This document shows, in pieces, positions 8,149 through 30,022 of a stretch of 64,000 nt of DNA. The DNA comes from Eledone cirrhosa (Eukaryota). Position numbers and translations under genes: made by a program. The stretch spans positions 12,772,001 to 12,836,000 of the forward strand of contig OZ024746.1 in the NCBI GenBank assembly GCA_964016885.1, written 5' to 3'. How positions within the stretch are numbered: the first letter of the stretch is position 1; each line of letters starts with the position of its first letter. The notes beneath the pieces are model-generated. The model did not search any database and was not told where the DNA came from. It saw nothing but the letters and a program-made list of their open reading frames with translations.

Positions 8149-8279
<131 letters not shown>

Positions 8280-8402
8280 GTAGGAGGTGAGTTTTATTGT
8301 AGTACAATAAAGCAATGCAGATATCGGATAAGAAGCACTCTACAGTTTGTAGGACTGGAGTATACATAATATAAGATCAAAAGATGGTTAAAGGAGTTCC
8401 AT

Positions 8403-8473
8403 GTATTTTATTATGCGCATTTCAAAAACAAACATCATCATGCAATAATATTTGTGTTTTCATCAGATAAAAC
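8403..8473 (-). ncRNA. Minimal type I hammerhead ribozyme (family B), - copy
   Basis: Reverse complement of the 8581-8650 motif (tcatcag at 8460-8466, atgcgcatttc at 8413-8423). Confidence 0.78.
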
Positions 8474-8580
8474 AGGAGAACATGATATGAAGGCTAAAAA
8501 ACACCTGTGGACAGTGTAGTTTTAAATAAAAAAACTGCACTGTCCACAGGTGTTTTTTAGCCTTCATATCATGTCCTCCT

Positions 8581-8650
8581 GTTTTATCTGATGAAAACAC
8601 AAATATTATTGCATGATGATGTTTGTTTTTGAAATGCGCATAATAAAATA
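8581..8650 (+). ncRNA. Minimal type I hammerhead ribozyme (family B), + copy
   Basis: GUUUUAU - CUGAUGA (8588-8594) - 16-bp stem II (8595-8630, one mismatch, three G-U, loop GCAU) - GAAA (8631-8634) - U gcgc A (palindromic AUGCGCAU) - UA cleavage after 8642 - AUAAAAU pairing with GUUUUAU. Confidence 0.8.
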
Positions 8651-8680
8651 CATGGAACTCCTTTAACCATCTTTTGATCT

Positions 8681-8719
<39 letters not shown>

Positions 8720-8976
8720 AAGTTTTATTTAAATTGTTGGGTTACAACGAGTAAATATTTATAACTGATATAAAAGCACTCAACAAGTATTTGGAGTATA
8801 TTTACAATATTAAATAAATGGAAACTATATTTATAAAACCATATTTATTTCATTATATATATTTCAAGGATATCATATTAAAAATATTAAAAATATGGTA
8901 TGCCTTCTTCAGACAAAATACAATATAAACAGTCTTATAAATAGATAGATTTGATATATATATATATATATATTTG

Positions 8977-9839: not shown

Positions 9840-12800
9840 TTTAGACCTGGTTGCCTTTCGATATGATGGATGGACTACGGAATTCTGGAGAGTTTGAAAA
9901 GAAAAAATCTGGACACTCAGTGACAATGCCAAAGATAAAGACAAATTCACCCCATGCTGCCGGACGAGAATGCAAGGACTCCTCCTCTTTATTTCGGCCA
10001 CGGATGGCTAACATAACCCCGTCTAGCTCACCCCCACCCACCCACCCCTGCGCCCCACCGTTCCCACCCTCCAAACGCAATCCAAAACTTCAAAGTTGGT
10101 ACCATGAATGTAGGCACCTTAAAAGGTCGCTCTAACGAGGTTGTGGAAATACTTGAACGTAAGGAGGTCGATGTTTGCTGTATTCAAGAGACCAGGTGGA
10201 GGGGTGGGTCTGCTAGATTCATTGTGGGTAAAAAACGATGCTATAAGCTTTTCTGGGTGGGAAATGACAATGGGCTGGGTGGAGTAGGAATCATGGTAGC
10301 AGAAAAGTGGGCAGATAAGATAATAGATGTAAATAGCGTGAACGACAGAATAATTAAAATAAGACTTGCCCTCAATAATATCTGCATATGCACCCCAATC
10401 CGCACTGCCTGGTGTTATAAAAGACAGATTCTATGAGTCGTTAATGCTCACTACCTCCGAAATAACCGACAGTGACTACATAATTATCGCTGGCAACCTA
10501 AATGGTCACGTTGGACAACATTGTGACAGCTATGACGGAATCCATGGAGGCTATGGGTTTGGTACTAGAAATGAGGAAGGCTCCAGAATCCTGGAATTCT
10601 GTGACGCAAATAACCTAACTATCTGTAACACTAACTTCAAAAAACAAGACAATCACTTGATCACTTATAGATCAGGGGAACACACCAGCCAGATAGATTA
10701 TATCCTTACCAGAAGACGTGACAGAATGTCTGTTGTAAATTTAAAAGCATATTACTTGATGCTTTTGATAGTAAGGAAGAGCAATTAGAGTCGTACAATA
10801 TAGAAGAACAGTGGGAATTCCTGAAAGCTAACCTGCTGAAGGCGACAGATAAAATCTGTGGCTGGAGCAGACCTATAGGCAGGAGGAGAGTAACTTGGTG
10901 GTGGAACAGTAAGGTGGAGAATTCAATCAAGGCCAAAAATCAGGCTTGGAAAGCATGGCGGAGTGAGGGAAGTAGAGAAGACTATCAAATGGCCAGGAGG
11001 GAAGCTAGGAGACAAGTGTACTTCGCAAGACGGGAAGCAGAGGAAAGAAAGTTCAAGCATGTTCTACAATGCGAGGACCAAAAACGTGAGGTGTTCAGGA
11101 TTGCTAGGCAATGTGTCAAGGAAAGCCGTGATATTGTCGGGGAGAAGTGTGTCCTTAATGATGATGATGTACTTACCATCACTGACGCTGATAAGAAGGT
11201 AGCTTGTAAGTGTCACTACAAAAGGCTACTAAATGAGGAGAATAAATGGGAGAAAGACAGTCTCCCCCACATCGATCCAATAGAGGGACCAGCAGTGCAA
11301 GTTGAAGGTAGTATAATAAGTAAGGCAATCAAAGATATGAAGACAGGCAAGGCGGCTGGGCCTTCAGAAATAGTTGCTGAAATGCTGAAAGCATCTGGAA
11401 CAGTGGGACACACTATGGTCACCCAGATAGTAAACCAAGTCATACAGAATGGGGTCGTTCCGAAGGACTGGTGTAGCAGCATCATCATTAACTGCTACAA
11501 GGGTAAAGGAGATGCCCTAGATAGGGGAAACTATAGAGGCATTAAATTAATTGACCAGGTCATGAAGGTCACAGAAAAAGTAATAGCGCAACTAATCAGA
11601 GAGCGAATTGATCTAGATGAAATGCAGTTCGGGTTTGTGTCAGGTAAATGTACCACAGACGCTCTTTTGATTGTACGACAACTACAGGAGAAGTACCTAG
11701 CTAAAAGTAAACCCCTATACTTAGCTTTTGTTGACTTGGAGAAAGCCTTTGACAGAGTCCCCCGCTCCATTATCTGGTGGGCTCTTAGAGAATTAGGTGT
11801 TGATGAATGGCTTGTGAGAGCTATACAAGCCATGTATAAAGAAACAGTCAGCAAGGTTAGAATTAACAACAAATATAGTGAAGAGTTTAGCGTAAAAGTT
11901 GGTGTCCATCGGGGCTCCGTCCTTAGCCCCCTACTATTTATTATTGCCCTTCAGGCTATAACAGAGGAGTTCAAGACCGGCTGCCCATGGGAACTCCTAT
12001 ACGCAGATGATCTAACACTCATAGCTGAATCAATGGCTGAACTAGAGAAGAAATTCCAAACATGGAAGCATGGCCTAGAATCAAAAGGCCTTAAAATTAA
12101 CCTGTCTCAGACTAAAGTTCTAGCTTGTAGGAAGGAAAATAGGGCACTGGTCCCATCTGGGAAATGGCCATGCTCAGTGTGTAGGAAAGGAGTAGGCAGA
12201 AACTCCATTTTATGTCCCAAATGCAAAGTATGGGTGCATAAAAGATGTAGTGGGATCACAGGTAAGCTAACTAAGAATATAGATTTTATATGTGGTCGGT
12301 GCTCAGGTGCAATAAGTAGCAGCAAGTGCCCACAGAATACTAGCTCATTCCATTGCACAGATGGTTCTATAGAAATAGTGGACACCTTCCGTTACCTGGG
12401 TGACAAAATCAGCAGTGGTGGAGGGTGCTCTGAAAGTACAGAAGCTAGAGTCAGAATGGGATGGAAAAAGTTCAGAGAGCTTATACCACTATTGGCTGCT
12501 AAAGGGTTCTCTCTAAAAATGAAAGGCAGGCTGTATGATGCCTGCATACGAACAGCAATGTTACATGGCAGTGAGACTTGAGCATTGTGTGCAGAGGATA
12601 TATGCAGACTGGAGAGGAACAAAGCTTGCATGTTCCGCTGGATGTGTAATAGTAATATACGTGAACGGCAAAGCATAAATGAAGTAAGGGAGAAATTGGG
12701 AATAAGAGGGATCAGATGTTGTTTACTCGAGAGAAGACTACGTTGGTACGGTCACGTGATGCGCATGAAAGACGACAGCTGTATAAAAATGTGCAGGGCG

Positions 12801-13081: not shown

Positions 13082-15391
13082 AACTGTACTATTAATATAT
13101 ATTACTATCAACATGTACTACTATCTATGTGTACTACTATCAACATGTACCACTATCAACATGTATCCCTATCAACATGTACCACTATCAACATGTATCC
13201 CTATCAACATGTACCACTATCAACATGTATCCCTATCAACATGTACCACTATCAACATGTCCTACTATCAACATGTACCACTATCAACATGTACCACTAT
13301 CAACATGTACCACTATCAACATGTACCACTATTAACATGTACTACTATCAACATGTACCACTATCAACATGTACCACTATCAACATGTTCTACTATCAAC
13401 ATGTACTACTGTCAACATGTACCACTATCAACATGTATCCCTATCAACATGTACCACTATCAACATGTCCTACTATCAACATGTTCTACTATCAACATGT
13501 ACTACTGTCAACATGTACTACTATTAACATGTACTACTGTCAACATCTACTATCAACATGTACCACTATCAACTTGTACTACTATCAACATGTACCACTA
13601 TCAACATGTACTACTGTCAACATGTACTACTATCAACTTGTACTACTATCAACATGTACCACTATCAACATGTACCACTATCAACATGTACCACTATCAA
13701 CATGTACTACTGTCAACATGTACCACTATCAACATATACTACTATCAACATGTACCACTATCAACATGTACCACTATCAACATGTACCACTATCAACATG
13801 TACCACTATCAACATGTACTACTATCAACATATACTACTATCAACATATACTACTATTAACATGTTCTACTATTAACATGTACTACTATCAACATGTACT
13901 ACTATCAACATGTACTACTATCAACATGTACTACTATCAACATGTTCTACTATCAACATGTACCATTATTAACATGTACTACTATCAACATATACTACTG
14001 TCAACATGTACCACTAATAACATGTACTACTGTCAACATGTACCACTATCAACATGTACTACTATCAACATGTACTACTATCAACATGTTCTACTATCAA
14101 CATGTACCATTATTAACATGTACTACTATCAACATATACTACTGTCAACATGTACCACTAATAACATGTACTACTGTCAACATGTACCACTATCAACATG
14201 TCCTACTATCAACATGTACTACTATTAATATGTACTACTATCAACATGTACCACTATCAACATGTACCACTATTAACATGTACTACTATCAACTTGTACT
14301 ACTATCAACATGTACCACTATCAACATGTACCACTATCAACATGTACCACTATCAACATGTACCACTGTCAACATGTACTACTATCAACATGTACCACTA
14401 TCAACTTTTACTACTATCAACATGTACCACTATTAACATGTATTACTGTCAACATGTTCTACTATCAACATGTACTACTATCAACATGTACTACTATCAA
14501 CATGTTCTACTATCAACATGTACCATTATTAACATGTACTACTATCAACATATACTACTGTCAACATGTACCACTAATAACATGTACTACTGTCAACATG
14601 TACCACTATCAACATGTCCTACTATCAACATGTACTACTATTAATATGTACTACTATCAACATGTACCACTATTAACATGTACTACTATCAACTTGTACT
14701 ACTGTCAACATGTACCACTATCAACATGTACCACTATCAACATGTACCACTATCAACATGTACTACTATCAACATGTACCACTATCAACATGTACCACTA
14801 TCAACATGTACTACTATCAACATGTACCACTATCAACATGTACCACTATCAACATGTACCACTATCAACATGTACCACTGTCAACATGTACTACTATCAA
14901 CATGTACTACTATCAACATGTACCACTATCAACATGTACCACTATCAACATGTACCACTATCAACATGTACCACTGTCAACATGTACTACTATCAACATG
15001 TACCACTATCAACTTTTACTACTATCAACATGTACCACTATTAACATGTATTACTGTCAACATGTTCTACTATCAACATGTACTACTATCAACATGTACT
15101 ACTATCAACATGTACCATTATTAACATGTACTACTATCAACATATACTACTGTCAACATGTACCACTATCAACATGTCCTACTATCAACATGTACTACTA
15201 TTAACATGTACTACTGTCAACATGTACCACTATTAATATGTACTACTGTCAACATGTACTACTATCAACATGTACCACTATCAACATGTACTACTATCAA
15301 CATGTACCACTATCAACATGTACCACTATCAACATGTACTACTATTAACATGTACCACTATCAACATGTACTACTATTAACATGTACTACT
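13082..15391. repeat. 16-bp tandem satellite, about 144 units, consensus TATCAACATGTAC(C/T)AC
   Basis: Directly visible. It explains all the MYHYQHVPLSTCTTIN ORFs. Confidence 0.97.
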
Positions 15392-15970
15392 AAAACTTTC
15401 AACGAACATTTAATGAAAATTCAAACCATGTATAAATGAAACAATTCTACATAGACATATTAATATATTATAACTGTTGCTCTCGTAACCTTTTTTGTGG
15501 GGGAGTAAGGGAAAGAATGATAAACAAAATAACTAAAAGTGAGTGTGAATGGTGTACAGTCGGGTCCCAAACAATAGGGGTGTGTGTGTGGAATAAGTGG
15601 TGGGATTGAAAAATAGATAATTTTTTAGGCTGTCTATCTTGAGTTTTTTTAAGCAGAATTAGTCATTTAGTTACATATTGAGACCCCAACTCATCCTATT
15701 TATTTATAACGTATGTTCTTTTTGTTTGTTTGTTTTGTTTTGTTTTTTGTTATGTATAATGTTTTTTTTAATATCTAAAGAAAATTAACTGTTGCAGGAA
15801 TGCAACCATTTAAAATAAAGTTTCGCTGGAGATAGATTAGCAAAATGTAATAAGCAGAGCTGTGGAATAAGAGTGTGGGAGGTGGGAAAATATCTGAAAA
15901 ATTAATAAGTGATGGAGGGACGATTATTGGAAACTTGAGAGTATATGAACTAGAAGTTGGTAATATATAT

Positions 15971-26845: not shown

Positions 26846-28075
26846 GATTATAATAATAATAATAATGACATTATTGTGTACAGTGCTCAGGTGCACTACA
26901 ACTCATCAAAGGTGCATGTATAGTACATAGAATAATGTACAAATGTCAGGAAAATTAACAGTGTACGAGTCATGATATAATAATAATAACAATAATGAAA
27001 TATTGTGTACAGTGCCCAGGTGCACCACAACTCATCAAAAAAGTGCATGTACAGTACATAGGGCAATGCACAAATATCAGTAAAATGAACAGTGCACGAG
27101 TCATGATACACACATGTGTGCATGTGTATGGAAGGGGTACATCAGGTGTAGTTTTGGCGTATTTCGGGAAACATGAGTGTCTTAAAGGATGCAGTGTCTC
27201 GGCAGCTAACAATTGACGCAGGCAGTTTGTTCCATGCTTCAGCAACTCTGAGCGTGAAAAAATGTCTACGAAAGTTATGGGAGCTGTGCTGTTTTCTGAT
27301 CTTGTAGGCATGTCCACGTGTGTTAGACACATGGAGATCAAAGAGGCGCTCAGGGTTGCAATTGGCGAGATGGCTAAAAACTTTGTGGGTATTCACCAAG
27401 TCCATTGCCAGACGTCGGAGCTTCAATGAATCCATGCCCAGGGAAGCAAGGCGTTCAGAGTATGGTAGGTGTCTGATGGATGGTATGCGCTTGGTTGCAC
27501 ATCTCTGAACAGTTTCCAGGAGGTCAATGTTTTGAGCAAGATAGGGGTTCCAGACTGATGATGCGAATTCCAAGTGTGGTCGTACCATAGCTGTATACAG
27601 TTTTAAATAGATGGCTGGAGAGCGGCTAACAAAGGTCTTGCTGAGTGATGCCAAGACACCCTCGGCCTTCTTGACAATCTTAGAGACATGCTTTGTCCAA
27701 CGCAAATCGTTGCTGACAGTAATGCCCAGGTCACGTTCACAAGAGGACTTTTTGATATCAGTGTTGTGGAGGGAGTATGTGGACGCTGGATTTTTCCTTC
27801 CAAAATGCATGGTGGTACACTTGTCCACAGCCAGCTTCAGTTGCCAGTCTGTGATCCATTGCTGCATTGTGTCCAGGTCTGATTGTAGGAAAGAGTTGTA
27901 AATTTCAGGATCAGTCCTTTTGATTTCAAGGTACAGCTTGATGTCATCTGCATATTTTAGTACCGTGGCATTCTGTAAGTTGGCATCTATGTCGTTAATA
28001 TATGCCACAAACAAAAGAGGACCAAGAACAGATCCCTGTGGTACACCAGATGACATCTCATATGAACCATTATCT
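26846..28075 (-). mobile_element. 5'-truncated CR1-type LINE with open RT C-terminal ORF and doubled 3' end
   Basis: SGVPQGSVLGPLLF, YADD, ERDLG, LYTAMVRPHLE, TRGH, AWNKLP in ORF 27142-28146 (homology begins near 28070). 3' UTR with GTGC-loop-GCAC stem and (att)n tail at about 26977-27035; a second 3' end at 26846-26977. Confidence 0.93.
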
Positions 28076-29125
28076 ACTGAACCACAACATTTCATAAAGG
28101 AAACATCACCTGCACTATACTCACTGAGAACATATTGATCGTACACACGTCAGTGATAGCTGCAATGATGAATTCTATTATTTATTCGGTTGCTAAACCA
28201 CTGTACCACAGAATATTATCTTTAAGTAATGTATCAAGATCAGTTTATACTAATAGTACAACTTACAGCTCAGTATTATAACTCCTGATAGAGTTATAGA
28301 GGAGCTATTGTGACATGCTACTAGGGTACTTTAAACCTGACAGAGAACAGCCCCTCTCCAGGTTTGAACTCAGTCAATTTCTTCCAAAGTAGGGTAGAGA
28401 GAATGACAGAAAATGCGAAAGAAATATGGAAGAACTGACTCCAATACAGGTCAGGTACTTCTTTTTTTATTGATCTCCAAAGGATGAAAGGCAAAGTTGA
28501 CTTTGGTGGGATTTGAACAGAGATCACAGAGAGATGGAAAAAATACCACAAAGCATGCTTAGGGTTCTTTAAACCTGAACACAGCTGATTTCTTCCAGAG
28601 GAAAGAGAGGTGGAGAAAAATGGTGGGAGAAAGGAAGTGAGAAAGAGGAAGAATTGACCCAGTACTAATCTAGTACTTTTTTTATTGGCCTTAAAAGGAT
28701 GAAAAGCAAATCTGACTTCAGCGGGATTTGAACTCAGAGAATGCAGAGAGAGCCAGAACAAATACTGCAAGATGTTCTAACAACTCTGCCGAGAACTATA
28801 TACTTCATACAACAAAAGTAAACAGTTGTTTTTCAGTAAAATATTGGCATGTGTCCAATAGGTGAATGATTCTGTTGCTAAATAGATATAAGATTAGTAC
28901 TATCATGCTATCTCTGGAGAAAACACATGCATAAAATCACATACACACACGTGTGCAAAAAAAAACACATGCAAACACACACAGACCACACAAAATTAAA
29001 CCCACATAAAGAAGAAGCAACAAATATTAAACAAAATATACCCCCAAACAAATACTTCATAAGTGACCTAGAAAACAGTTGACTTGGATGAGTAAGGTTA
29101 ACATATTTCTAAAGTGAAAGTGAAC

Positions 29126-29411: not shown

Positions 29412-30022
29412 ACATTTAGTGTGGACTGGGTGCTTTTTGTCGTGACACCTACACAACCACTTTACAGTGTGGGCTGGACACTTTTTGTCGTGACACCTAC
29501 ACAACCACTTTACAGTGTGGGCTGGGCACTTTTTGTCGTGACACCTACACAACCACTTTACAGTGTGGACTGGGCACTTTTTGTCGTGACACCTACACAA
29601 CCACTTTACAGTGTGGACTGGGCACTTTTTGTCGTGACACCAACACAACCACTTTACAGTGTGGGCTGGGCACTTTTTGTCGTGACACCTACACAACCAC
29701 TTTACAGTGTGGACTGAGCACTTTTTGTCGTGACACCAACACAACCACTTTACAGTGTGGACTGGGCACTTTTTGTCGTGACACCTACACAACCACTTTA
29801 CAGTGTGGACTGGGCACTTTTTGTCGTGACACCTACACAACCACTTTACAGTGTGGACTGGGCACTTTTTGTCGTGTCACCTACATAACCACTTTACAGT
29901 GTGGACTGGGCACTTTTTGTCGTGACACCTACACAACCACTTTACAGTGTGGACTGGGCACTTTTTGTCGTGTCACCTACACAACCACTTTACAGTGTGG
30001 ACTGGGCACTTTTTGTCGTGTC
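29412..30022. repeat. 48-bp minisatellite (about 12.5 units) amplified from the inside of the RTE-tailed SINE
   Basis: Unit accactttacagtgtggactgggcactttttgtcgtgacacctacaca follows directly on ctacagctggatgcccttcctaatgc of a SINE copy starting near 29250. Confidence 0.93.

Follow-up and report, generated by a model that had tools for sequence, protein, structure and literature searches.

A head-to-head, hammerhead-bearing stub of a Penelope-like element in Eledone cirrhosa and how such stubs might form

The insertion and its two hammerhead motifs

The window analysed here, a stretch of 64,000 nucleotides from the genome of Eledone cirrhosa, contains an insertion of 409 bp in which two 5'-truncated arms of a Penelope-like element (PLE) lie head to head within a (TA)n microsatellite. 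Throughout, position 0 denotes the end of the pLTR, negative positions lie inside the pLTR and positive ones in the element body or tail. The features are, in window coordinates:

8151..8277, no strand: (TA)n target microsatellite, left portion (repeat scan)
8278-8686: whole insertion, 409 bp, 5'-truncated, head-to-head PLE arms
8278..8367, minus strand: 90-nt tail, equal to the opening 90 nt of the element body (5' UTR)
8368..8527, minus strand: left arm, pLTR, the element's final 160 nt (-160 to 0)
8405..8473, minus strand: left-arm hammerhead motif (type I), cleavage predicted between 8412 and 8411
8528..8530, no strand: head-to-head junction, AAA between the arm starts -160 and -156
8531..8686, plus strand: right arm, pLTR, the element's final 156 nt (-156 to 0), without tail
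8581..8649, plus strand: right-arm hammerhead motif (type I), cleavage predicted after 8642
8581-8587 pairing with 8643-8649, plus strand: right-arm stem I, 7 bp, one G-U
8588-8594, plus strand: right-arm core CUGAUGA
8595-8630, plus strand: right-arm stem II, 15 pairs (3+12), one C-U mismatch
8631-8634, plus strand: right-arm GAAA
8634-8641, plus strand: right-arm stem III palindrome AUGCGCAU
8640-8642, plus strand: right-arm cleavage triplet AUA, predicted site
8687..8716, no strand: (TA)n target microsatellite, right portion (repeat scan)

The inverted repeat (8361-8523 / 8531-8693) is 163 nt long and 98% complementary, with two mismatches inside the arms, as expected from an earlier note on this DNA that had described a palindrome of near-identical inverted arms in a microsatellite target; the (TA)n indeed flanks the insertion on both sides. 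That note set the element at 8366..8688, but the insertion begins at 8278, because the left arm bears a 90-nt tail that had been overlooked. Comparison with family loci shows that this sequence follows the pLTR end and precedes the ORF in full-length copies. In the window the tail is limited to the left arm, and the right arm passes directly into (TA)n at its 3' end. The left and right arms start 8 and 12 nt short, respectively, of the family's 5' hot spot at -168 and show no G there, and the junction, with its three extra A, differs from the other centres examined. A tblastn search over the window detected no family ORF. The window's own copy is an ordinary stub.

Each arm carries the layout of a minimal type I hammerhead, with a CUGANGA core, GAAA, an NUH triplet, stems I and II, and a stem III that is palindromic, the left arm repeating the motif of the right on the minus strand (8473-8405). 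The two opposed layouts that the earlier note had read from the letters (CUGAUGA, GAAA, palindromic stem III, AUA and a 7-bp stem I) are therefore present; its stem II of 16 bp has to be corrected to 15 pairs (3+12) and one C-U mismatch. Metazoan PLE hammerheads share the type I topology, the long stem II and the palindromic stem III, and are believed to work as dimers (Cervera and de la Pena, PMC4209133). Compared with the motifs described in that source, stem II is much longer here, and the pair adjoining the core is A-U instead of the expected, highly conserved G-C; the Hydra motifs listed in PMC8557442 have 3-7 pairs in stem II. The computed self-duplex energy of AUGCGCAU is -10.5 kcal/mol.

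The folding energy of the motif is at chance level (z = -1.06), 31 of 200 shuffled sequences folding equally well. The Rfam check proposed for the hammerhead yielded no match at the gathering score in the window, and none of the 28 weak matches around the site was to a hammerhead family; the miRNA-like ones among them are due only to the long hairpin. Stem variation was compared among eight family variants, chosen from ten full-length variants seen at least three times (76 distinct variants in all). All eight stem pairs that vary remain paired, every change being one-sided and most being swaps between G-U and Watson-Crick pairs, with no two-sided change; the shuffle control for this comparison was uninformative (500/500), and controls with slid positions were paired in 42-61%. 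The two omitted variants are changed at a position picked by the mutant-selecting search and, inspected by eye, have stem I paired in one case and broken in the other. Support for a hammerhead beyond chance thus comes from the complete core within a PLE end and from the eight of eight varying pairs that stay paired. The motif is well formed, its conservation is weakly supported and its activity is a prediction from sequence. An AATAAA at 8642-8647 (plus strand) overlaps the predicted cut, so cleavage would destroy it; a second AATAAA lies at 8293-8298 (minus strand), about 15 nt ahead of the +90 end.

The earlier note had also anticipated a competition between ribozyme and hairpin, and the predicted energies agree: about -274 kcal/mol for the hairpin against -5 to -8 kcal/mol for the ribozyme, according to which a read-through transcript of the palindrome would fold as a long hairpin rather than as a ribozyme. 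Such a transcript holds a single sense hammerhead motif. Since each strand consists of one sense motif and its antisense arm, dimerisation in cis would not take place within the palindrome, and pairing of the palindromic stem III would require head-to-tail tandems or a partner in trans.

Another repeat end, unrelated to this family (8717-8960, minus strand), faces the right arm over the same (TA)n. It has a hammerhead motif at about 8920-8847, with CUGAAGA, a long stem II, GAAA, AUAUAUAU and an 8-bp stem I. About 15 of the other fetched loci also contain this repeat end, with a variable stem II; at one of them (L132) it forms an inverted pair with one arm longer. Judged by these features, it probably represents another PLE family. 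Near the fetched insertions we saw at least six further hammerhead-motif families with a palindromic stem III (at L003, L031, L032, L058, L093, L137, L224 and others), and the Eledone cirrhosa genome holds many such putative ribozyme motifs of PLE type. Elsewhere in the window there are open frames at 10722-12581 (plus strand, 619 aa) and 27142-28149 (minus strand, 335 aa), which by eye we take to be non-LTR reverse transcriptases of RTE and CR1 type, a 16-bp minisatellite of 144 copies (13087-15392) and a 48-bp tandem array of 12.6 copies (29418-30020).

Family identity

When the arm was searched against its own genome, 40 scored candidates yielded 57 matches. Of these, 54 are near full length and 98-100% identical, in keeping with the youth that the earlier note had ascribed to the element, and many form head-to-head pairs of variable spacing, one of which encloses the end of a GIY-YIG ORF. 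Two loci (L042 and L043) have an open frame of 821 aa with reverse transcriptase (RT) and GIY-YIG parts, and a third (L044) shows the order inverted pLTR, direct pLTR, ORF, pLTR, which is the published PLE layout; pLTR, inverted 5' copy and a tail on one end are found together at L044, L041 and L182. The family unit measures 3,672 nt, of which 1.1 kb are 3' UTR, and its full-length relatives carry a single RT and GIY-YIG ORF of about 800 aa, as do EN+ PLEs. The suspected link to PLEs therefore holds, the arm being the 3' end of an autonomous PLE, whereas the idea of a self-contained, non-coding fold-back element fails, as the arms are 99% identical to ORF-linked copies. Against Pfam, the C-terminal piece of the protein matched GIY-YIG with an E-value of 0.0011, below Pfam's cut-off, and the whole family protein matched neither RT nor GIY-YIG.

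The Hydra clade is defined by RWK, DKT, CxCx5C and CxxC/CxH motifs, by the lack of CCHH and by a (TA)n target (PMC8557442). The 821-aa protein contains RLRWT, SDKTN, CNCRIKNKC, CNLCLNE and CLH, with the K of RWK replaced by T; judged by eye it lacks the CCHH motif, and of the 97 terminating arms nearly all run into (TA)n. In common with members of the clade such as Hydra-1_Obim and Penelope-13_HM are RW-K/T, DKT, the CxCx5C linker, CxxC/CxH around E and N, the C-terminal GIY-YIG, the (TA)n target and a hammerhead near the 3' end; for Penelope-13_HM an inverted copy truncated at its 5' end is also listed, with hammerheads on both strands, as here (PMC8557442). By eye, against the supplement of that paper, the family protein resembles Hydra-1_Obim, but their hammerhead sequences are unlike, so the two are different families. 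Members of the clade are described there as generally smaller than 3 kb, and the Eledone cirrhosa unit, at 3.67 kb, exceeds this because of its long 3' UTR (1.1 kb) and an N-rich linker. In the L042 protein (P0001) this linker, rich in Asn, Ser and Thr, occupies residues ~590-680, so that RT and EN are separated by some 70 residues missing in the aligned homologues. It is reminiscent of the N-rich inserts in rotifer Penelopes (PMC3846280). Taken together, the window feature is almost certainly a stub of a young Hydra-clade Penelope-like retrotransposon.

The family is not only young but also large in the Eledone cirrhosa genome. A 35-nt piece of the hammerhead has 8,236 exact genomic copies (control: 0), and in a protein search all 150 scored matches were 99-100% identical, with the 821-aa frame intact in about 26 of them, counted by eye. 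Near-identical arm and tail pieces also occurred under several organism labels in public sequencing runs (X4, X6, X7 and others; four runs covered), a pattern pointing to broad sharing among relatives or to transfer.

Arm ends, pairing and the start at -168

We examined arm ends on contig C1, using its first 100 motif copies in positional order (60 loci, 63 Mb), a sample that contains only copies with an intact 35-nt motif. The 3' ends fall at two places, 56 at 0 and 41 at +87..+92, and 3 read on or end otherwise. In 34 of the 37 head-to-head loci with two arms, an arm ending at 0 is paired with one ending at +90 (p about 6e-8 against 0.5); the three exceptions are two +90/+90 pairs and one 0/0 pair, and no locus among the 60 is tail-to-tail. 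By eye, an older subfamily has the same arm ends. Partners also match in length, 35 of 37 pairs being short/short or long/long and 2 mixed. The 19 short/short pairs are mini-palindromes resembling that of the window; extrapolated from 19 of the 60 sampled loci, about 1,500 of them would exist genome-wide. Their centres, where inspected, are all different, with trims and small duplications, so the palindrome must be built anew at each insertion rather than copied whole. Partner arms differ from each other at a mean of 3.0 positions, compared with 5.8 between insertions, and 14 of 31 pairs are identical, which fits one source locus per insertion. Among 34 pairs there are 13 whose tail-less arm extends beyond the 5' end of its partner by more than 10 nt, the tail being on the partner only, and thus neither arm is contained in the other. 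At L006, L010, L039, L092 and L093 small tail pieces (e.g. +17 or +38 to +89) are found on the 5' ends of some insertions, as if a second cDNA had been trimmed or a template switch had occurred early.

The 5' starts are also concentrated: 37 of the 100 arms (18 arms ending at 0 and 19 tail arms) start at -174..-163, mostly at -168. Across the genome, 2,492 arms have their start at -168 preceded by a foreign (non-C) base, and 2,341 read through this position. The base ahead of -168 is G in 1,236 of the 2,492 arms, compared with 9 of 50 control junctions. Among 30 inspected loci with this G, partner sequence or a local duplication can account for it at 16, and at 14 the G matches no element sequence; it is present in three of six solo copies adjoining (TA)n. 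Microhomology by itself could yield 21-45% G among non-C bases, and 40-45%, near the observed 50%, where 3-4 bases are shared with the partner. The sequence at -169, CATATG, is a 6-bp palindrome that could draw joining or pausing; of 18 further palindromes of this length within the final 1.2 kb, none has a comparable hot spot. A G at -169, as a trace of template jumps, was absent from the first 100 of the 2,341 read-through arms. An untemplated 5' G is the accepted mark of cap copying in L1 and SVA (PMC4859970), and an internal promoter has been described for the Penelope of D. virilis (PMC2377424). From the position and base composition of these junctions, -168 is likely to be the 5' end of a capped RNA and the G a copied cap.

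The hammerhead cut, in contrast to -168, left no such mark. Pattern matches for arms starting at the cut (-44) number 64, compared with 68 and 67 at two control positions, and an apparent pile-up of ends there (20 true junctions among 30 loci) disappeared beside the control sites (16 of 30 and 14 of 30). The priming sites 0 and +90 are both located 3' of the cut, which the cDNAs cross, so the templates were uncut. A genomic footprint of cut templates is absent, and the RNAs that were integrated were uncleaved.

Formation of the stubs and its meaning

We consider it fairly probable that the stub is a head-to-head insertion produced by two reverse transcriptions of RNA uncut by the hammerhead. 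The observations that this reading connects are the family with its ORF and copy number, the 0/+90 ends and their pairing, the start at -168, the unique centres and the cut-site counts. The GIY-YIG nuclease would cut both strands of the (TA)n, and of the target 3' ends set free one would prime at 0 and the other at +90. Where priming takes place on the site copies near the RNA 5' end, two short cDNAs would run off at -168, the presumed capped transcription start; their ends may then be trimmed and joined via microhomology or short insertions copied from a template. In this reading, the pair of divergent hammerheads would be a by-product of insertion, because the motif falls within the 168 nt copied by both cDNAs. 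Long arms could arise by priming at the downstream copy in tandem templates or by a template jump; tandem templates exist in the family, and long tail-bearing arms need either these or a jump. A more specific version, in which a protein dimer primes at 0 and +90 on capped, uncleaved RNA starting at -168 and so yields a PLE analogue of strong-stop DNA, is one we put forward tentatively, with slightly less than even confidence.

Several parts of this reading have counterparts in known systems. Head-to-head insertions with an inverted pLTR and a tail from the start of the element body have been described for PLEs (PMC3846280, PMC2377424); there the tail is given as 30-40 nt, compared with 90 nt here, and about half of the inverted insertions of the present family are, unlike those described, pLTR-only stubs ending at one fixed position. 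Pairs of opposite-strand hammerheads 100-700 bp apart have already been noted in Schistosoma (PMC4209133). The Anolis PAc protein cuts and extends both strands of an AT-rich target, has two internal RT start sites that bound the tail and is a predicted dimer; its ribozyme depends on the protein, and the RNA used as substrate is mainly uncleaved (PMC11167929), with which the uncut templates found here agree. PAc belongs, however, to Poseidon, another clade than Hydra, and the parts of that paper available to us link the start sites neither to the two arms of an inverted insertion nor to a fixed 5' run-off. In L1 twin priming, too, two primers per insertion lead to an inversion and G marks the capped end (PMC4859970); unlike there, both arms here duplicate the same terminal sequence, the starts are fixed 90 nt apart and poly(A) was not seen.

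Among the rival explanations, an unlikely one, although it fares best, is a separate short capped RNA of about 258 nt (-168 to +90), primed at two sites and mobilised in trans in the manner of SINEs, whose source could be stub copies or early polyadenylation at the AATAAA 15 nt ahead of +90. The position of this AATAAA in the tail, shortly ahead of the +90 end, would suit it, as would tail-bearing solo stubs and the pair lengths (19 of 37 short/short, only 2 mixed); but poly(A) occurs at none of the listed +90 junctions, 18 tail arms are long, and short and long copies have subfamily variants in common, so there is no separate mini lineage.

Marginally less likely still is self-priming, proposed for rotifer Penelopes (PMC3846280), by which a cDNA or antisense RNA would snap back at CATATG and copy itself. 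A hot spot on a 6-bp palindrome and the perfect hairpins at some centres would be expected from this, and partner arms are closer to each other than arms are across insertions (3.0 vs 5.8 differences; 14 of 31 identical). Fold-back is nevertheless disfavoured by the 13 of 34 non-nested pairs, in which neither arm lies within the other and which argue against the published model; also, solo copies start at -168 likewise, and the 18 other palindromes of this size in the last 1.2 kb lack a similar hot spot.

An independent non-autonomous fold-back family of retrozyme or MITE type, its palindrome copied whole and its ribozymes processing its own RNA, is improbable and largely refuted. The roughly 1,500 extrapolated mini-palindromes and the stems retained among variants might speak for it, but the inspected centres of short palindromes all differ, ends show no excess at the cut site (64 vs 68 and 67), the hairpin at -274 kcal/mol outweighs the ribozyme fold, and the arms are 99% identical to ORF-linked copies. 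Copies of MITEs and fold-back DNA transposons have one common internal sequence and symmetric ends; here the centres vary and the ends are asymmetric, by which we rule out such an element. We also rule out a non-LTR retrozyme, defined as non-coding head-to-tail tandem repeats with one hammerhead per unit (bioRxiv 10.64898/2026.07.22.740005), the insertion being head-to-head, of two copies, and its arm derived from a coding element. Finally, 20 of 24 public sequencing runs contain part of the stretch and 12 at least half its words, none of those listed being an RNA run, and although the contigs of four runs have no piece spanning the stretch with the window's junction, an assembly or amplification artefact is highly improbable, since the window arms differ at two sites and in the tail and the same asymmetric design recurs with different centres at 34 of 37 sampled loci.

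Inverted pLTRs, tails, (TA)n targeting and opposite-strand hammerheads are already published for PLEs. In the portions of the literature available to us we did not find the strict 0/+90 pairing, the fixed 5' run-off with its excess of G or a counted absence of ends at the cut site, nor, among titles and abstract openings (subscription papers being outside this scope), a link between inverted PLE stubs and a capped 5' run-off. The origin of PLE inverted repeats and tails and the role of the hammerhead are stated to be open questions in PMC8557442 and PMC11167929.

For these questions, the family's thousands of near-identical copies make PLE integration directly testable, with coordinates to start from: a pair of priming sites separated by 90 nt, a start predicted at -168 and no indication that templates were cut. 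About 1,500 hairpins of roughly 160 bp have likely been seeded in one genome, and these could feed dsRNA pathways if transcribed. If integration by two priming events on capped, uncleaved RNA is true, the 0/+90/-168 rule would account for the tails, the inverted repeats and the pLTR length of PLEs; -168 would be the real boundary of the pLTR, the hammerhead would be silent on the RNAs that are integrated, and the roughly 1,500 mini-palindromes would be a record of the rule.
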